Notes: a model not told the origin generated them from the letters alone. Counted from the stretch's first letter, positions 416 through 7,914 are shown. The stretch is 64,000 bases of DNA from Dehalococcoidia bacterium (GCA_034428795.1 DAOUHF010000146.1:7197-71196), one strand, 5' to 3'. Numbers and translations: made by a program.

Positions 416-1054
416 TCAGTTGAATTCCAGCTCTTCAACCAAGTCTTGGAACCGTCTGATCCAGCGGCGCACCTCACGCTGGTTTTTGTCGCATAACATC
501 TTCAGTTTCTGTTCCAAGGCTGTTGCTTCCCCTCGGGTTGAGATGGTGCTGAACCATACAAGCTTCGGGTTTTTGCCGGTAGTCCCCTGGACAGTCCCGT
601 CTCGGTGTTCCATAAGTCTTTCCCGGATCTCGCGAGTCTGGCCGGCGTAGAATTCCCCGTCGTCCAGCTTGAGAATATAGACGTAGAATTCCGTTGCATT
701 TTTGTCCCCAGCTTCCCAGTCGGGAGAATATTCTGGGTTGTATCTCCGGTAGGGCTTTTTGGCACCGTTGGTTGGTCGGCAGTTAGGACATGTCGGGTAT
801 CCGGATCCTTTTCCTTGCTTGCACTTGGGACATTCGTTTATTTCTCCTTTCTGTGCTGCTTGGAAATGGTCAGGGCCCCAGACGTAATGGGATGGTATGG
901 TCTTGGTACAGTCGTAGTATTTGCATCTCTTGGCGCTCTGGGATGTAGCCATGCTGACCCCACGGAAGGTTGATTTCTCGCGGTGGTCGTGTTTCCACTT
1001 GAAGTACAGGAAGGCTCCTGCGATTCCCACGGCAAAGATAAGTAATATTTCCAT
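416..1054 (-). CDS. Membrane-anchored, Cys-rich GIY-YIG nuclease-domain protein
   Basis: GIY-YIG/URI motif FYVYILKLDDGEFYAGQTREIRERLMEHRDG ... KLVWFSTISTRGEATALEQKLK in the C-terminal half. N-terminal hydrophobic helix ILLIFAVGIAGAFLYF. CxxC-type pairs CPKC...CPNC. The ATG at 1054 is preceded by GGAG, whereas the track start at 1066 is a TTG. The locus is low in GC (28 G+C in the 60-nt line at 661, hand count). Confidence 0.7.
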   Translation of the reverse strand: MEILLIFAVGIAGAFLYFKWKHDHREKSTFRGVSMATSQSAKRCKYYDCTKTIPSHYVWGPDHFQAAQKGEINECPKCKQGKGSGYPTCPNCRPTNGAKKPYRRYNPEYSPDWEAGDKNATEFYVYILKLDDGEFYAGQTREIRERLMEHRDGTVQGTTGKNPKLVWFSTISTRGEATALEQKLKMLCDKNQREVRRWIRRFQDLVEELEFN

Positions 1055-1229
1055 GTTTTGCTCCAATGCCTACCCCGGCGAGAAGCAGTAATGATGAGTG
1101 CTTCACCATAAGCATAGCCAATTCGGGCGCCACCAAGGACATCGTTCTTGGTGGCGGAGCCTGACACCAAGCCAGAGTTTTCTAGGTTGACCTCCCCCCG
1201 ATTCTACCATAGACACGTTTCGTCCTTAG

Positions 1230-1634
1230 GTGGACATGTTGACCAACAGGGGACCTGTGATGCCCAAGTTGACCAATGTAAGAATCGATCTTAAGGTCCC
1301 CGGAGTCGGCGGAATCTCAGGGACGTGGGAACCGGACGAATCGGAGATAATGGCAGCCTGGGAACTGTACGTGGAGATGGTGACAATCAACCTGGGGAAC
1401 GACCGCCTTGTCTCGGTCAACGACCTTATCCGTACCATCGAGGGTGCCGTCGGACGTGTCGCCTTGGTTCAACATGAGGAGCGACACCGGGCCGATCCCT
1501 CGTTGATGTGGGCTGACATAGGACGCGCCCGCAGGCTTTTGGGATGGCACCCGGAAGCGCCCATCGAGGAAGGAATCCGTCGCACCGTGACCTCGCACCT
1601 GGACAACCGGGAGTGGGCCAAGGACCTCGTATGA
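1230..1634 (+). pseudogene. Chimeric ORF: unknown N-terminal fragment fused to the C-terminal ~70 aa of an NAD-dependent epimerase/dehydratase
   Basis: The C-terminal part VSVNDLIRTIEGAVGR...RADPSLMWADIGRARRLLGWHPEAPIEEGIRRTV matches the extreme C-terminus of SDR-type sugar epimerases (AD..kA...LGW.P...leeGl..t). The Rossmann N-terminus is absent. The first ~55 aa (GISGTWEPDESEIMAAWELYVEM) are unrelated. Confidence 0.45.
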
Positions 1635-1664: not shown

Positions 1665-4600
1665 CTACAACAGCTTGGAGTAACGCGGCTTGGCCAAAAT
1701 GCGGGCGATGACGGAGTCCCTCTCACGCCTGCTGTCTTCGTCCTTGGGTGCGGCGGGTTCATACAGGTAGAGCGGCTCGGCTATGTGCCGCGGGCTAGAG
1801 GCCATCTCTATGATGGGCGCCATGAACGCCCAGTCGGCGGCAAGGTCGATCCATTCTCCGCCCCACTTCAGGTCTTCGACGTTGATGGCGTCAAATAGCC
1901 GCTTCCTGAAGGTCCGAAGGTGCTGCCACACGTTGCTGTCCCACCAGCGGGGACGGTCGAAGTTCGGAAGATAGAAAATCTCCTTGTCGAGCCTGAGCAT
2001 GGACCCCACAGTCACGTCGGCGCCGTCTTCGTACTCCGCTCCGACCCGCTGCAGCACACGCTCCCCGATCAGGGCGTCGTCCGGGTCCAGGGTGATGATC
2101 ACCGACTCCGGGTCGGCGCAGTAGTTGGCGATGGCGTTCCAGGTGTTGTACAGCCCGCCGCGCCGCTGCTCGTTCCTTACAAGGGTGACTCGGTCTCCGT
2201 AGTCCGCCAGCAGCACGCGGGCATAACTGCCGAACCCGTTGGTTGAGGCATCATCGACCACCACCGCGCCCCGGTCCGGCATACTCTGGGCAACAAGGGA
2301 CTCGACGCAGCGCTTGAACCTGCCGGGCTCCACGTTGCGGCCACAAATCACGAAGACGAAGGGTTCACGCCGCTTGGGACCCGCCCAGTCCGATGGGGAT
2401 CCGGTGAGCTCCACGTTGCCCAGTTGCGCGGCGGGCCTATGGCCCCGTTCCACGGAGGCGGTGATGTCCAGCCATTCCCCGTGGTCCGCTTTCCGGTCAT
2501 TGGGCACGTGGATGAAGGCCGTCCTGGGGTCGCCGCCCCGATAGGAGTGGTAATCCGAAGCAGCGATGAAGCGGTCGAAGGCCCGGTGCCATGCCAGGGC
2601 GAACCTTCCTTGTTCAACCTCGTTGGGCACAGGCAGCACCGTCTCGAGCCTCTCGCGGTCGAACAGGCAGCCGCGCACCTCGACGCGCCAATCCTCCCCG
2701 TTGGGCCTCTCGTGAGAGTAGAGAATCGGCTCGGAAGAGCAGATACTCATGGGCACGAACAGTGCCTTCGGGTCGGTGCGTAGGACCTCCACCATCTCGC
2801 CGAGATAATCGTGGTAGTGGTCATGACGGGCTATCAGCAGGTCGCTGTCCACCTGCAGGACATAATCACCGGAGCAGGAATCGAATCCGAAGAGGGTGGC
2901 GAACAGTTGCTGCCCGTTGGCCGAGTGGGTTTCCCCCGTCTCCGCTCCGAACCATTTCCTGTAGGTGGCCCGAATTATTGCCGGATCCTGAGGTGCATAG
3001 ACCACCCGGTCCACCACGCCGCCTGCGAGCAGGCGCTCCATTGCCGCTCGATGGGCATCCGGGTCGGGGTAGTCGTACTGGCGGGCGAAGGGTCCATCGA
3101 ACGAGTCGACCACCACAACCTTTTCCATGAACGACACCGGAGTTTCCAGTTGGTCAACCTGGTGCCGCACCAGTCGCTCGATTGTGCGCCATTCCATGAC
3201 GCACGTCTTGACCAGGAAGGAGACCCGCGGCCCGTTTGCTGGTGCGGGTGTGAGCCGAAAGACCAAGTGGTCGGATGAGGGTAGAAGCGCCTTGGTGTCC
3301 GTGCCGTCGAGTTCGGATGCGCCATCGACAAAGAAACCGGCGTTGATGAAGGCACGCCGGTAGGTGGAGTAACTCCGGTGCACCTCGCTCCGCGTGTTGC
3401 CATTGGCGACCACGGTCTTGTCGTATACGAAGGTGTCCTCGTACCCCCATCCGTCATGCAGATATTTTCCCGACAACTCTGTCGACGCAGCGGACAGGTG
3501 GAACGGATTGCAGACCGCCACGAAGACAGTTCCCGATTCGGCAACCAGCCCGCGCAGGTCTTTCAGCCCCTCCTCGAACTCCGAATTGTCGGCGATCGTG
3601 CACAGCACTCTGCCGCAGACCACGGTGTCGAACCTGGCGTTCTCTGCCAAGAGCTTTTCGAGCAAGTCCCTTCCACCGTAGCCGGCACGGCTTCCGTGCT
3701 CCAGGCACCGGGAGACGCAGGCGTTATCAGGGTCGTACCCGACTACAACAATTCCCCGGCCGGCTAGTTCCTCGGTCAGGCGCCCGTTGCCGCATCCATA
3801 GTCCAGCACGGAACCGGGTCTCTCGGCGGCGATCAGGTCCGCCAATGGCCGGTAGTAGAGCTCGTCGAGTCCTCTGAGATCCAAGGCCCTGCGGAATTGG
3901 TCTAGTCCTGCCAGTTCCGGCAGAGAGGCGTCGGTCAGCGACCTGGTCATGAGTAGCTTGAGGTCCGAGCGAAACGGAAACCGGTACGTGAGGTACGTCC
4001 GTCGGCACATGCGCTCGAACTCGGCGTCATTCAACGGGACGATATCCGAGCCGTAGTCGATGAGCTTCACCCCGGAGGATGTGACCAGCAGATTGTCCGG
4101 ATGGATGTTGCGGCAGGCTACTCCGGCCTGCCTGGCCTCCCGGAGCAGGGTCAGCAAATCATCCAGGTGTCCGCCCTCGTATTTCACCCCTTCATCGTAG
4201 GGATAGACCACAACCACGTGCTCGCCCCGCTCACGGACTTCCAACAAATCCGGCAGAGCCTTGTAGCCGGAGACTCTGCCCACCAGGGATTCCAGGAACG
4301 CGACTCGTTCCGTCCGGTCCCGCGCCTTCCAGTAGTGGAAATGCTTGTAAACCAGTAATCCGTCGGTGAATACGACTCCCTCTTCCCCAACACCGAGACC
4401 GGTCAGGGGACCGGTTGCGAATTCGGCTCGAACATAGTCTTCCGCCGCCTGCTGCAGTTCCTTCAAAGGCAGGGGTGTACTGGCTCGGTGCCGGTCAACA
4501 ATCGCACGCAGTTGACGCAGAAAATTCTCGATGACCGTGGCATCAACATCACTTACACGCAGCTTGAATTCGTCCAACCGGTCATCAGTGTAGATGTACT

Positions 4601-6917
4601 CCAACTCACCCACGAAACTACGGAGGCCTTCCAGTGAATGCGCATATTCCCCGTTCTCCAGCCACCAGGGCCCTCGGTCTCCATCCGACAGGACACGACA
4701 CAACGGCTGCAACGCAGAGATCAATCCCCTGACCCTGATGCAGCTCATTTCGAAAGCGGAAACCCGTTCGGCCAGGTACTTTCGGTGGAGACCGGCGGCC
4801 ATCTTGATTTCCCCGTCAGTGAATTCCAATAGACGACTTCCGCGGGGGAGTACAGCTCCGCCTTGACCCTGTTCAGCCTTATGTTCCAGCAGATCCCTCA
4901 GGGTTGAGTAGAAGGCGTACCCCAGCAGGTCCTGCTCCATGGTGGAGAAATGGCCTTGCACCGATCCGTCGTTGGGCGCAGCGCTCCTGACCTGCCGGAC
5001 GGGGAGCGGGGCCTGAAGAACGTCGCGCCCTCCGGCGTAACGGTTGAGCAGGCTCCATACCATGTCGCTGCGTCGGATGTCCGCGCCGTCTACGGCCGGA
5101 ACGGCGTTGGGAAACTCCCGCAGGGCCTGGAGGTCGAACACCAGGGTGGCAGGCCCCCTGTTGATCGATGACGAAAGACCACCGCCGCCGACGCTACGTT
5201 CGCCGCGCGCCAGTGGTCGGAATACTTGGATTCCGCTCACAATCCCGGGGAGGCGCGCCACCAACTCCCTGAAAACCGCCCCTGCCGTCTGGTTCTGTCC
5301 CGTAGCCTCGTACCAGAAGGGCAGTTCCAGTTGGCTCGTCCCGCTGCTGGATAGGTCATAGTAATAGTCCGGGTTCTCCAGCCGGGCCAGCCGGTTCTCA
5401 TTCCGGAGGTCGGGAAACGGCCAATCGGGAGACATGGAAGCAAGGCGGTGCAAGTTGTGATACAGGTCGACCAGTTGGGTCCTGATACAGCTCAGGGCTG
5501 GCAGGGGCGGATCTCCCGTCACCTCGCACAGGGCTATGCTGGCCCCGCTGTCCTTCAGCCTCTTGATTTCGGACACGTAATCGAAATTCTGGGAGTGCAG
5601 TGAATCGCTGGGGCCATATGCCAGGCTTTCCAGCACCACGTCGTCGTCGAGAATCCACACCACCGCCCCCGGCAGGGGCTTGGCCTCCATGAACAGGTAG
5701 TGCTGGAGCATGGTGCGGCTCAGTGCAATGCTCTTTCGCCTGGACAGTTGCTCCCTGGTGACGGCAAAGACCCCAGCCTCGGCATCGTCGGCCTGCTGTT
5801 CCAGGGTTTTCACAATAACGTCAAGACCCTGGTCTGTAGCCCTGTCCACCGTGTCCCGAAGGTCTTGCCTGGAAGCCTGGTCTTGGCCGCCGTTTTCCAG
5901 CAGGACGACCCTCAGCGTAACTCCCTCGCCTCCACCGATCTTCTCAGCAAGAGAGTTCAGGAGGCGGTCCACGAGGCCGGTGTCGGGAGACGTTATGGAT
6001 CCCGCCACCAAGGTCAAAGGGTTCTCAGAGACGTGGGTTTCTGATGCGAGCATGCCTGCGACGGGCGCCACGATCTCCCCAGTTGGATCGCAGTCGAACA
6101 GTCTCCGGCTCCTCTCGATGAACGCCGCCTGCTGTTCATCGGACATCCGGCCCCGATATTTGCGAAAGAAATACTTCAGCCCGGCGCGCTTCGCGTCACC
6201 ACCGGGAGTGGACAACCTGGGACGGTCGTTGTCGGCAAAATGATGGACAAGATGCTCGTTCATTAAGCCGTACTTGACTGTGCCCAAGTCGGCCAGCCGG
6301 ATGCAGATGTCCCTGTCGGTGGTGCTGTTCATTGCCTCATCGAAGCCGCCCGCCTCCAGCAGTCTGCGGAGCCTGGCGAATAGGTTGGAGCCTTGGATGT
6401 GAGGGTTGCGAACCAGCGGGGCCCCGGCGTCCAGGCTGGCTGGTGGGTCCAGCAACTCGGCTTCGGCGCCTTTGGAGTGGTGGAAGGCCAGGCCGGAGGC
6501 CACTATGTCCAGGCCCCTTTCCAAAACCGCCTCTTCGCAATGTTCCAAGTATGTCCCGGCCCACGAATCATCGTCGTCCAGGATGGCGACGTACGCCAGC
6601 GGGTCAATCCCGTGCAGGCGGAAAAGAGCAGTGTTCCAAGCTCCGGAGGCACCCGGCGTACGCCGGTTCTCCAAGTAAAGCGTCCGGGTGCCGGGGATCG
6701 TAAGGCCCGCCACGACTTCAGCGTTGGCGTGCCTGGTGTCGGCGTCCGAGTCGTCGACTACGACCAGATGGTCCGGGAGTCGAGTTTGCCTTGCGATGGA
6801 CGCAAGGGCCCTTTCAGCAAGGAGTCCCGGCCTGTTGTGGGTGGCAACTACGGCGGCAATGGAGGGCACAATAAACGTCCGAGATTTCAGGGTAGTCGAC
6901 CTGAAGGATGATCTCAC
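1665..6917 (-). CDS. Giant (1750 aa) multidomain protein: GT2 + GT-A-like + Hanks-kinase-like + class I SAM methyltransferase + GT-A-like + GT2
   Basis: Uninterrupted 5253-nt ORF.
- N-terminal GT2: AAVVATHNRPGLL...LVVVDDSDAD...ILDDDDSW (DDDD near 6570-6590).
- Second DxD module: WILDDDVV (about 5640-5663).
- Kinase-like module: G-loop GVGEEGVV (4371-4400), VYK (4341-4352), CRNIHPDNLLV (4092-4118), IDYG (4043-4066).
- Methyltransferase motif I: VLDYGCGNG (3783-3812).
- Third DxD module: VLQVDSDLLI (2831-2861).
- C-terminal GT2: VVVDDASTNG (2237-2266) and ITLDPDDA (about 2075-2100). Confidence 0.85.
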   Translation of the reverse strand: MRSSFRSTTLKSRTFIVPSIAAVVATHNRPGLLAERALASIARQTRLPDHLVVVDDSDADTRHANAEVVAGLTIPGTRTLYLENRRTPGASGAWNTALFRLHGIDPLAYVAILDDDDSWAGTYLEHCEEAVLERGLDIVASGLAFHHSKGAEAELLDPPASLDAGAPLVRNPHIQGSNLFARLRRLLEAGGFDEAMNSTTDRDICIRLADLGTVKYGLMNEHLVHHFADNDRPRLSTPGGDAKRAGLKYFFRKYRGRMSDEQQAAFIERSRRLFDCDPTGEIVAPVAGMLASETHVSENPLTLVAGSITSPDTGLVDRLLNSLAEKIGGGEGVTLRVVLLENGGQDQASRQDLRDTVDRATDQGLDVIVKTLEQQADDAEAGVFAVTREQLSRRKSIALSRTMLQHYLFMEAKPLPGAVVWILDDDVVLESLAYGPSDSLHSQNFDYVSEIKRLKDSGASIALCEVTGDPPLPALSCIRTQLVDLYHNLHRLASMSPDWPFPDLRNENRLARLENPDYYYDLSSSGTSQLELPFWYEATGQNQTAGAVFRELVARLPGIVSGIQVFRPLARGERSVGGGGLSSSINRGPATLVFDLQALREFPNAVPAVDGADIRRSDMVWSLLNRYAGGRDVLQAPLPVRQVRSAAPNDGSVQGHFSTMEQDLLGYAFYSTLRDLLEHKAEQGQGGAVLPRGSRLLEFTDGEIKMAAGLHRKYLAERVSAFEMSCIRVRGLISALQPLCRVLSDGDRGPWWLENGEYAHSLEGLRSFVGELEYIYTDDRLDEFKLRVSDVDATVIENFLRQLRAIVDRHRASTPLPLKELQQAAEDYVRAEFATGPLTGLGVGEEGVVFTDGLLVYKHFHYWKARDRTERVAFLESLVGRVSGYKALPDLLEVRERGEHVVVVYPYDEGVKYEGGHLDDLLTLLREARQAGVACRNIHPDNLLVTSSGVKLIDYGSDIVPLNDAEFERMCRRTYLTYRFPFRSDLKLLMTRSLTDASLPELAGLDQFRRALDLRGLDELYYRPLADLIAAERPGSVLDYGCGNGRLTEELAGRGIVVVGYDPDNACVSRCLEHGSRAGYGGRDLLEKLLAENARFDTVVCGRVLCTIADNSEFEEGLKDLRGLVAESGTVFVAVCNPFHLSAASTELSGKYLHDGWGYEDTFVYDKTVVANGNTRSEVHRSYSTYRRAFINAGFFVDGASELDGTDTKALLPSSDHLVFRLTPAPANGPRVSFLVKTCVMEWRTIERLVRHQVDQLETPVSFMEKVVVVDSFDGPFARQYDYPDPDAHRAAMERLLAGGVVDRVVYAPQDPAIIRATYRKWFGAETGETHSANGQQLFATLFGFDSCSGDYVLQVDSDLLIARHDHYHDYLGEMVEVLRTDPKALFVPMSICSSEPILYSHERPNGEDWRVEVRGCLFDRERLETVLPVPNEVEQGRFALAWHRAFDRFIAASDYHSYRGGDPRTAFIHVPNDRKADHGEWLDITASVERGHRPAAQLGNVELTGSPSDWAGPKRREPFVFVICGRNVEPGRFKRCVESLVAQSMPDRGAVVVDDASTNGFGSYARVLLADYGDRVTLVRNEQRRGGLYNTWNAIANYCADPESVIITLDPDDALIGERVLQRVGAEYEDGADVTVGSMLRLDKEIFYLPNFDRPRWWDSNVWQHLRTFRKRLFDAINVEDLKWGGEWIDLAADWAFMAPIIEMASSPRHIAEPLYLYEPAAPKDEDSRRERDSVIARILAKPRYSKLL

Positions 6918-7300: not shown

Positions 7301-7549
7301 ATGTCCATTGAAGAGGAGCTGCTGAAGCGCATCTCCGTTCGTTCGGAGATATTCGGAGGAAAACCCATCATCCGTGATATGCGCATTGCGGTGGAACACG
7401 TTCTGGGAATGCTGGCCTCGGGAGACACCTCCGAAACGATTCTCAGCGAATATGAGTTCCTTGAGGTTGAGGACATCCAGGCATGTCTGCTGTACGCTCA
7501 TCGTTCGCTGGCAGGGGAGCAGGTCCATGAGCGTATGACAGTACGGTAA
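7301..7549 (+). CDS. DUF433 domain protein (antitoxin-like partner of DUF5615)
   Basis: RISVRSEIFGGKPIIRDMRIAVEHVLGMLASGDTSETILSEYEFLEVEDIQACLLYA is the DUF433 signature (GG.P.i.gtRi.v..vl..l..G.s.eeI...yp.l..edi.aal.ya). The ATG at 7301 follows AGGAGAGG. Confidence 0.75.
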   Translation: MSIEEELLKRISVRSEIFGGKPIIRDMRIAVEHVLGMLASGDTSETILSEYEFLEVEDIQACLLYAHRSLAGEQVHERMTVR

Positions 7550-7593: not shown

Positions 7594-7914
7594 ATGCGCG
7601 CCACGCTCGCCCGCTTGGGACATGACGTATTGTCCGCGGCTGAGTTGGATCCAAAGGCCAGCGATGAAGCCCTGCTCTCAATGGCGCTGTCGGAACAGTG
7701 GGTACTCATTACTGAAGACAAGGACTTCGGCGAGTTGGTGTTTGTACACCGACTGCCGCATCCGTGCATCATCAGGTTTGTCGAAATGAGAGTCGTGGAA
7801 CAGGTTGACGCTATGGAGGAGCTCATTAAGGGTTACGAGGACTCAATGACGGACGGCACCCTCATCGTGGTCACCCGAAGACGGATAAGAATACGCCACG
7901 GGCACCCCGAATAG
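7594..7914 (+). CDS. DUF5615 (Mut7-C/PIN-like) protein, toxin-like partner of DUF433. The N-terminus is apparently truncated.
   Basis: LARLGHDVLSAAELDPKASDEALLSMALSEQWVLITEDKDFGELVF..LPHP matches the DUF5615 family. In-frame homology (KKFLLDVCASS) continues upstream of the first ATG to 7555, but that stretch has no ATG/GTG/TTG. Confidence 0.7.
   Translation: MRATLARLGHDVLSAAELDPKASDEALLSMALSEQWVLITEDKDFGELVFVHRLPHPCIIRFVEMRVVEQVDAMEELIKGYEDSMTDGTLIVVTRRRIRIRHGHPE

Follow-up and report, generated by a model that had tools for sequence, protein, structure and literature searches.

A conserved 1734-residue protein combining glycosyltransferase, methyltransferase and kinase-like modules in a Dehalococcoidia bacterium

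Introduction

What might a bacterium make with a single protein that carries four glycosyltransferase-like modules, a methyltransferase and a kinase-like module? The question is raised by one large gene in a stretch of 64,000 nucleotides from a Dehalococcoidia bacterium (GCA_034428795.1, DAOUHF010000146.1:7197-71196; the whole stretch is called the window below). An earlier note, made from the sequence alone, had named these modules and, knowing of no characterised enzyme with their order, proposed a new type of glycan or cell-envelope machine. We conclude, with a probability of about 0.6, that the product of the gene is an intact multi-enzyme, soluble and cytoplasmic, from a widespread family that has yet to be characterised, and that this one polypeptide both builds a glycan or glycoconjugate and methylates it. 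Our confidence in the anatomy of the protein is high; in its biology it is moderate to low.

Proteins that unite some of these activities have been described. ORF6 of Klebsiella pneumoniae O7 holds a methyltransferase, a cryptic kinase, a carbohydrate-binding module, a coiled coil and two modules of glycosyltransferase family 2 (GT2) in one protein; its kinase is active, the D441A variant is dead, and the gene lies within an ABC-transporter O-antigen locus (PMC11231755). WbbB of K. pneumoniae O12 is a further combination of glycosyltransferase with methyltransferase-kinase (PMC11231755). In Escherichia coli O9a, WbdD adds first a phosphate and then a methyl group to the end of the chain, for which it needs the aspartates of its catalytic loop; it is trimeric via a coiled coil and membrane-associated, and the glycosyltransferase modules are found on a separate GT4 protein, WbdA (PMC3482155).

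Results

The reading frame is intact and conserved

On the minus strand, the window translation contains an open frame without interruption that spans 1665..6917; counted from GTG it has 1750 codons, with the most upstream possible GTG at 6917 and the stop codon at 1665-1667. It agrees with the frame described in the earlier note, and all of the motifs quoted there were found in the translation (VATHNRPGLL, VVVDDSDAD, ILDDDDSW, WILDDDVV, GVGEEGVV, VYK, ACRNIHPDNLLV, IDYG, VLDYGCGNGRL, VVGYDPD, VLQVDSDLLI, VVVDDASTNG and ITLDPDDA). A frame of 5.2 kb cannot be a chance product. A GTG at 6869 is most likely the real start, since both the database protein P0001 (1734 aa, 100% identity) and the orthologs (1730-1736 aa) begin there. 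The whole coding sequence, 1734 aa and stop, is thus placed at 1665..6869 (minus strand), and residues are numbered from this start unless 1750-aa numbering is stated.

A homolog search of 5.8 billion proteins returned 780 matches at E<=1e-5. Full-length homologs formed more than 120 clusters at 90% identity, and the best 120 of the 780 matches were mostly ~1730 residues long and 58-100% identical. Scanning one genome per species gave 67 loci from several phyla, many of them on complete chromosomes. In an alignment of 48 full-length homologs (58-88% identity), the DxD motifs of all four glycosyltransferase modules, motif I of the methyltransferase and the motifs of the kinase-like module were invariant; conservation and indel positions in the same alignment were used to set the domain borders. 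The single-frame architecture is real and conserved. The maximal Kyte-Doolittle value across the protein was 1.18 over 19 residues, and no hydrophobic or membrane-association segment was found with this 19-residue span; the protein is predicted to be soluble.

Could the frame have arisen by an assembly or annotation error fusing separate genes, or be a decaying pseudogene? Several orthologs in other metagenome-assembled genomes (MAGs) are frameshifted, deleted or interrupted, and shorter forms of the protein occur naturally. Against this, the same 1734-aa protein with the same neighbours was present on two independent assemblies, ERZ28763704 (540 kb) and ERZ25074053 (141 kb), which, together with full-length orthologs on complete chromosomes of several phyla, excludes the chimeric assembly that the earlier note had asked to be checked. 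The many full-length homolog clusters argue the same way, and every motif that we class as catalytic appears intact in the 48-homolog alignment. Base composition is that of the genome (G+C 0.616 in the frame and 0.612 as window mean, with a GC3 close to that of gyrB), and the gene is native to it. We consider an artefact or pseudogene extremely improbable, and refuted for this locus.

Two canonical and two predicted divergent glycosyltransferase modules

The N-terminal module D1 (residues 1-260; 6090..6869, minus strand) and the C-terminal module D6 (residues 1499-1734; 1668..2375, minus strand) are canonical GT2 glycosyltransferases of the GT-A fold. With Pfam PF00535 the whole protein reached 108 bits (cutoff 23.3), matching over one N-terminal and one C-terminal stretch, of which the best (1531-1670 in 1750-aa numbering) is in D6. 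GT2-type families of NCBIfam matched residues 17-255 (D1) and 1521-1626 (D6), and the two modules were related to each other by hhalign (97%). VVVDD 36-40 and DDDD 98-101 of D1 are invariant in the alignment; D6 carries VVVDDAS and LDPDD. Over the 48 homologs, the acidic pair that follows beta2 and the DxD are invariant or nearly so in both modules (D39, D40 and D98-D101 in D1; D1539/D1540 and D1595/D1598 in D6). The best NCBIfam match of D1 was the mycofactocin glycosyltransferase MftF, far under the cutoff of that family.

Module D2 (residues 283-645; 4935..6023, minus strand), which bears an invariant W-x-x-D-D-D at 405-410, gave no Pfam match in a single-sequence scan and no significant match in a profile search of PDB sequences. 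When the modules were compared by hhalign with narrow-family profiles, nothing was obtained for D2 or D5; for D2, the diversified profiles alone worked. With profiles of ~130 diverse relatives, D2 aligned with D1 over 215 columns (81.5%, E=1.1e-5), with beta1, beta2 and the DxD in register (WILDDDV with AILDDDD). The D2 HMM also matched 8 of 134 isolated D1 sequences at E<0.01, and D2 always comes after a GT2 domain. D2 is a probable divergent GT-A module on these profile comparisons.

For D5 (residues 1212-1498; 2376..3236, minus strand), with its invariant D1341-S-D1343, sequence searches produced marginal matches only: the profile search of PDB sequences gave no significant match, the Pfam scan gave nothing useful, and no sequence-level relationship with D1, D2 or D6 was detected even with diversified profiles. 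An AlphaFold model of D5 (mfa921d01ca29; pLDDT 75, pTM 0.82) was matched by Foldseek to 89 PDB chains at E<=1e-3, and the best 50 of these 89 were all GT-A-type glycosyltransferases or nucleotidyltransferases. They included BcsA (E=4.9e-6), K4CP, XXYLT1, B3GalT5, HAS, GpgS, LARGE1, CHSY3, GtrB and sugar nucleotidyltransferases. As the model matches in this way and the sequence searches stayed marginal, D5 is best described as a predicted GT-A fold with an invariant D-S-D motif and no recognisable family. A role of the GpgS/MGLP type was considered for D5 from the DSD motif, the GpgS match at 17% identity and the histidine-phosphatase fusions described below. We did not take it up, as GpgS ranks equally with many other GT-A matches and gave no match at the level of sequence.

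The four glycosyltransferase-like modules listed in the earlier note were thus all recovered, D1 and D6 by Pfam, D5 by its structure model and D2 by profile-profile comparison. The protein carries four GT-A-type modules with intact DxD, among which D2 is a probable assignment from profiles and the fold of D5 is that of a model.

A kinase-like module with asparagine in place of the catalytic aspartate

Between the second and third glycosyltransferase modules lies D3 (residues 816-1004; 3858..4424, minus strand), a predicted protein-kinase fold in which asparagine replaces the aspartate of the HRD motif. Its motifs are GxGxEG at 826-831, K842, C-R-N921-I-H-P-D-N926 and D938-Y-G, and the kinase-like motifs are located at window positions 4092-4115 and 4377-4394. 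The catalytic-loop equivalent CRNIHPDN (residues 919-926; 4092..4115, minus strand) aligned to HRDvKPhN of CK2alpha'. A Pfam scan with the single D3 sequence gave nothing useful, and a narrow family profile of D3 matched CK2 with E=0.13 only. A profile built from 34 cross-phylum sequences gave E=2.7e-6 for CK2alpha' and E=3e-6 for TTK when compared with the PDB, with 775 matches at E<=10; the 60 listed among these were mostly CK2 and TTK kinases with a few repeat proteins. The alignment with CK2alpha' ran through profile positions 8-126, from the Gly-loop through DxG, and HMMER paired "givcrNvHPdNl...liDyG" with "gimHRDvKPhNv...liDwG". Seven of the 34 D3 sequences matched Pfam Pkinase below threshold.

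In the AlphaFold model, D3 (pLDDT ~85-92) has the order b1-b2-b3-aC-b4-b5-aE-loop-b7-b8-aF, which is that of a kinase; the Gly-loop is placed between b1 and b2, K842 in b3 and D938 right after b8. The conserved Glu of helix alphaC was not found in D3. In Foldseek searches of PDB and BFVD with a model of the helical domain, D3 and the methyltransferase, no kinase structures were listed; matches of the methyltransferase filled the best 50, so the kinase fold of D3 is without direct support from structural search. The call is based on the profile-sequence matches and the secondary-structure order. Since the matches are in register and the order is kinase-like, we take D3 to be a true homolog of the kinase fold.

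The position of the HRD aspartate (N921) was Asn in 34/34 cross-phylum sequences and also in ~80 representatives of 50%-identity clusters, including relatives with another domain order. G826, G828, G831, K842, N926 and D938 were invariant in D3, and D925 varied. The degenerate kinase-like module with C-R-N for H-R-D, as first read from the sequence, is borne out by the alignments with CK2alpha' and TTK. The phosphorylation that had been suggested along with it is doubtful in its canonical form, because the Asn is invariant across the whole family. To keep the residues that bind nucleotide and metal without the catalytic base is the classical hallmark of pseudokinases, or of kinase folds that have been put to another chemical use.

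Pseudokinases with Asn for the HRD aspartate are known from HER3/ErbB3 ('HRN') and the JH2 domain of JAK kinases ('HGN'). These domains bind ATP, and their main roles are in regulation or as scaffolds. Like these, D3 keeps the Gly-loop, the beta3 Lys, the catalytic-loop Asn and the DFG Asp while the base position is Asn. Unlike these eukaryotic signalling domains, it is a minimal domain of ~190 residues within a bacterial or archaeal glycosyltransferase, and its nucleotide binding is putative. The AMPylase SelO and the glutamylase SidJ use a kinase fold with non-canonical catalytic residues for nucleotide chemistry other than that of kinases. The common theme with D3 is the non-canonical kinase fold, which is a lead only.

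A conserved helical domain and a class I methyltransferase

D2 and D3 are separated by a conserved, all-helical domain of ~170 residues (HEL, residues 646-815; 4425..4934, minus strand), which was absent from the module list of the earlier note. In the AlphaFold model m21db25ab3f85 of residues 646-1208 it has seven helices, the longest of ~39 residues, and no long coiled coil is present in the modelled span. A single-sequence Pfam scan gave no match. HEL travels with D2, and D1-D2-HEL also exists as a stand-alone protein of ~755-820 aa.

D4 (residues 1005-1208; 3246..3857, minus strand) is a class I methyltransferase dependent on S-adenosylmethionine (SAM), with an intact SAM motif, VLDYGCGNG; within this motif I, D1023-Y-G-x-G1027 is invariant in the 48 homologs. 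Pfam, PDB-sequence and Foldseek searches agreed on this module, as the first reading had it. Methyltransf_23/25/11/31/12 scored above threshold (PF13489 45 bits, cutoff 27), and the best PDB sequence match was UbiG (E=1.3e-7), with the WbdD methyltransferase matching weakly (E ~0.15). The top Foldseek matches were all methyltransferases, led by 3e8s (E=1.4e-11) and including CypM, ToxA, CcbJ, TylM1 and NmbA.

The modules recur in other combinations

A phmmer search with D2 and HEL against 1.84 billion representatives of 50%-identity clusters gave 481 matches at E<=1e-3, and domain forms were read by mapping the family HMMs onto the best 150 of these. Besides the full seven-part protein (D1-D2-HEL-D3-D4-D5-D6), we found D1-D2-HEL-D3-D4 proteins of ~1210-1290 aa, which are complete genes in Myxococcota and others with the next gene directly after them, and D1-D3-D2-HEL proteins of ~1000-1170 aa. 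Together with the stand-alone D1-D2-HEL form, they answer the question whether the modules also occur in separate or shorter genes. Fusions were an NAD-dependent epimerase-GT2-D2 protein (P0245), AsnB-NAT-GT2-D2 (P0267) and RibA-like-GT2 (P0272). Some variants from Planctomycetota and Actinomycetales carry an extra C-terminal histidine phosphatase (PF00300, RHGE motif, ~210 residues), which hints at a phosphorylated intermediate; these proteins of 1955-1990 aa are found at L042-L045, L049, L051 and L060. From the observed forms, the evolutionary core is D1(GT2)-D2-HEL, to which D3, D4, D5-D6 and sometimes the histidine phosphatase have been added. Stand-alone D5 or D6 genes were not found beside the forms that end with D4; a neighbour of 322-363 aa proved to be a polysaccharide deacetylase.

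The family ranges over many bacterial phyla and reaches archaea, which points to transfer between the domains of life. Archaeal members with a SLOG partner gene were seen in a Thermoplasmata MAG (L036) and on a Methanomassiliicoccales chromosome (L066, CP070739), and annotated relatives of the short form are known from Poseidoniaceae archaea (P0363). Shorter relatives also occur in cultured strains of Photobacterium, Shewanella and Pseudoalteromonas, where the annotation says no more than "glycosyltransferase family 2 protein"; the database names of family members are generic. Literature searches on the family, on SLOG cluster4/TIGR00725 and on the combination of RibA-NADAR, AsnB and glycosyltransferase retrieved nothing relevant.

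Nine orthologs in Dehalococcoidia MAGs are damaged by frameshift, deletion, interruption or truncation (L050, L013, L027, L031, L048, L062, L025, L040 and L052). L050 (87% identity) lacks residues 1030-1307, and L062 has a 4.2-kb interruption. The damage reflects either frequent gene decay or assembly error. In one MAG, two contigs (L002 and L010) hold gene copies that are 93% identical, each with an epimerase neighbour; either the copies are paralogs or the bin mixes two strains.

Sugar-nucleotide genes flank some loci and SLOG genes others

Downstream of the large gene and convergent with it, the window contains the last 82 codons of a GalE-like NAD-dependent epimerase gene (1383..1628, plus strand). 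The remnant lies inside a 131-codon frame and was identified by tblastn with the epimerase of locus L001, of which it matches residues 257-338 of 339 at 70% identity. In 18 orthologous loci a full GalE-like epimerase gene is found in the same convergent position. UDP-glucose 6-dehydrogenase is encoded upstream of the large gene in seven loci, and a polysaccharide deacetylase is present in four. Upstream of the large gene in the window are a DUF433/DUF5615 pair and then gyrB, truB, infB and nusA. The pair, a putative toxin-antitoxin, is at 7301-7549 (+) and 7594-7914 (+), in a stretch with a G+C of 0.53, below the window mean.

The DNA adjoining the remnant (1-1382) has a G+C of 0.55 and holds a GIY-YIG gene at 416-1066 (-) together with the end of a gene for an SNF2 helicase. 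Past window position 1 (L072:15816-25205), a defence or mobile island next to the truncated epimerase gene carries GIY-YIG and SNF2 helicase genes and two genes for BrxC/BrxD-like ATPases; the same island has a serine recombinase (resolvase and zinc ribbon) and an HTH-ParE toxin pair, and its layout is identical in the two independent assemblies. Decayed defence-gene debris and the lack of an obvious polysaccharide operon had been remarked on before. Here this holds, in that a mobile or defence island abuts, and probably truncates, the partner gene, which orthologous loci keep in full. As a general trait it fails: because orthologous loci keep UDP-sugar genes (UDP-glucose 6-dehydrogenase and GalE-like epimerase), the missing operon is best seen as a local accident.

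When Pfam families were counted over 150 proteins encoded in the flanks of ~60 loci, epimerase, SLOG, dehydrogenase and deacetylase were among the 25 commonest. None of the 25 was an ABC transporter, a flippase or a polyprenyl-phosphate transferase/glycosyltransferase. A SLOG cluster4 gene (PF18306, TIGR00725, LOG-like) follows the large gene in 22 loci (L037, L039, L042, L047, L053, L065 and 16 more), nearly all the non-Chloroflexi ones. In six loci, which belong to different phyla, the two genes share 4 nt, the SLOG start lying across the stop codon of the large gene. It is absent from the Dehalococcoidia loci, the Poribacteria loci and the window.

Short relatives of ~1115-1142 aa (GT2, kinase-like module, D2 and HEL) were found in Shewanella inventionis (L069:923-19131, CP082926) and Photobacterium sp. 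GSS17 (L071:10001-16516). In both loci they are followed by genes for a GTP cyclohydrolase II-NADAR fusion and for AsnB-like and NAT-like proteins. The S. inventionis set is cargo of a Tn7-like element (TnsA/B/C/D), with TagD/TagF-like genes near. RibA-NADAR, AsnB and NAT homologs were looked for near the giant genes and none were found.

Discussion

On our reading, the glycosyltransferase modules would add sugars from UDP-sugars and D4 would methylate the product. Among the donors there would probably be UDP-glucuronic acid as well as a hexose or N-acetylhexosamine (HexNAc) epimerised at position 4, as suggested by the dehydrogenase and epimerase neighbours, the epimerase fusion and the deacetylase. 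D3 would most likely bind a nucleotide in the way of a pseudokinase and act as a scaffold, a sensor or a clamp for the acceptor, because the nucleotide and metal residues (Gly-loop, Lys842, Asn926, Asp938) are kept while Asn921 stands at the catalytic base. Alternatively, it may transfer phosphate in an atypical manner to an acceptor for which no base is required, e.g. a phosphate or a carboxylate. As no export or lipid-carrier family is among the 25 commonest flanking families and no membrane segment was found, synthesis of the product, and perhaps its use, would probably be cytoplasmic; it might also be handed over to machinery encoded elsewhere.

The closest parallel in content is ORF6 of O7. 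Both unite a class I methyltransferase, a kinase fold that is cryptic in sequence and GT2 modules in one polypeptide; in ORF6 the GT2 modules build the same glycan, and further likenesses are that modules are shuffled among relatives and that some orthologs lack the glycosyltransferase part. In contrast to ORF6, the family has an invariant Asn where ORF6 has its catalytic Asp, places the kinase-like module before the methyltransferase and not after it, carries four GT-A modules and not two, and has no coiled-coil ruler or ABC-transporter locus; no detectable sequence relationship between the two was shown. With WbdD, the shared feature is a eukaryotic-type kinase fold joined to a SAM methyltransferase, which in WbdD serves glycan assembly, whereas a trimeric coiled coil, membrane association and a catalytic-loop Asp were not found here. 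Defining features of the WbdD/ORF6/WbbB class are thus absent: there is no coiled-coil ruler in the model of residues 646-1208, no transporter among the 25 commonest flanking families to suggest a Wzm/Wzt-type locus and no catalytic Asp, and the window has gyrB, a toxin-antitoxin pair and a defence island in place of Wzm/Wzt and initiating or adaptor glycosyltransferase genes. The family may work similarly to this class; it is not a member of it. The claim that nothing comparable had been characterised was therefore too strong, given WbdD/WbdA, O7 ORF6 and O12 WbbB, and what stays new is the order of modules and the lack of coiled coil, transporter locus and catalytic Asp.

Tandem GT-A modules in one soluble polypeptide are also found in K4CP (the chondroitin polymerase of E. 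coli K4), LARGE1 and the class II hyaluronan and heparosan synthases. These dual GT-A polymerases depend on UDP-GlcA and a 4-epimerised sugar from a dehydrogenase and an epimerase encoded next door. They have no methyltransferase or kinase-like module, and their likeness to D5 is at the level of fold only (10-14% identity, TM 0.4-0.5). From the neighbours present in part of the loci, we infer that the product may be glycosaminoglycan-like.

Several observations weigh against the proposed function. For the fold of D2 the evidence is profile comparison only, and the inter-domain geometry in the three-domain HEL-D3-D4 model is unreliable (pTM 0.49). The epimerase partner is truncated in this very genome, and outside Chloroflexi the constant partner is a SLOG/LOG-like protein and not a sugar-nucleotide enzyme. 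The short relatives sit on mobile elements with GTP cyclohydrolase II-NADAR, AsnB-like and NAT-like genes, and both contexts hint at an acceptor that is nucleotide-derived or a small molecule and not a polysaccharide. With eight or nine damaged orthologs in other MAGs, the function seems dispensable. The histidine-phosphatase fusions would fit a real phosphorylated intermediate and hence an active D3.

Could the protein be a polymerase-terminator of the WbdD or ORF6 (O7) type, whose glycosyltransferase modules polymerise a surface polysaccharide on a lipid carrier and whose D3 and D4 add a methyl-phosphate cap that sets chain length and licenses export via an ABC transporter encoded elsewhere? 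ORF6 has the same set of activities in one polypeptide (PMC11231755), as do WbdD and WbdA between them (PMC3482155). The kinase of ORF6 was likewise missed by sequence annotation, the WbdD methyltransferase is among the weak PDB matches of D4, and the histidine-phosphatase fusions suggest phosphate chemistry in some variants. Yet the equivalent of the catalytic D441 of ORF6 is Asn in every family member examined (34 and ~80), the place of an extended coiled coil is taken by just a 170-residue helical domain, and no membrane-association element was found. The domain order is reversed, D4 is much nearer to UbiG- and ToxA-like methyltransferases than to WbdD, and ABC transporters are missing from the 25 commonest flanking families. 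We regard an O-antigen-like terminator as unlikely.

The main alternative is a pathway in which the acceptor is nucleotide-derived or a small molecule, i.e. the protein would make a glycosylated, methylated secondary metabolite or a signalling or conflict molecule, with D3 and SLOG handling the nucleotide moiety. It would account for the SLOG gene in 22 loci with its 4-nt overlap in six, for the short relatives in Shewanella (as cargo of a Tn7-like element) and Photobacterium with their GTP cyclohydrolase II-NADAR, AsnB-like and NAT-like neighbours, and for the RibA-like-GT2 and AsnB-NAT-GT2-D2 fusions. The best NCBIfam match of D1, MftF, points the same way, though far under cutoff, and so do the small-molecule N-methyltransferases ToxA, CcbJ, TylM1 and NmbA among the structural neighbours of D4. 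However, the clade of the window gene is without SLOG, RibA-NADAR, AsnB and NAT neighbours and has UDP-sugar enzymes instead, and four glycosyltransferase modules exceed the usual number for decorating a small molecule. PADLOC gave nothing beyond generic methyltransferase and kinase similarity, and a known defence system was rejected on that account. We hold this pathway to be improbable as well, at a level with the terminator.

A bolder version of the glycan-building function, which we put forward as a speculation with small odds, is that D3 has been converted to another enzymatic task, much as SelO and SidJ have, and that the whole protein works in the cytoplasm as an assembly line complete in itself, whose output is a new class of methylated glycoconjugates. 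D3 might phosphorylate or nucleotidylate an anionic group, e.g. a sugar phosphate or the carboxylate of a uronic acid. If this were true, SLOG, the phosphatase or the sugar-nucleotide enzymes would be its partners, D2 with HEL would be a new glycosyltransferase family, and the makers would be marine and sponge-associated Chloroflexota, Planctomycetota, Myxococcota and some archaea.

Length control of bacterial polysaccharides is currently explained by modular enzymes that first polymerise a glycan and afterwards cap it chemically. To our knowledge, every case studied so far belongs to a Gram-negative O-antigen locus that has a coiled-coil ruler and an ABC transporter. The fold content of the present family is itself unsurprising. 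Its GT-A, methyltransferase and kinase-fold modules are assembled very differently, in a soluble protein with no ruler and no transporter genes near. Four features are unusual: a putative pseudokinase with invariant Asn is embedded in a glycosyltransferase, D2 and D5 belong to no recognised family (D2 at least is without a family model), an export context is lacking and the family is broad. The short relatives could be studied in the cultured Photobacterium and Shewanella strains. Were the product identified, a new pathway for glycoconjugates would be established, perhaps along with a new CAZy family, and a bacterial pseudokinase would be given a role.

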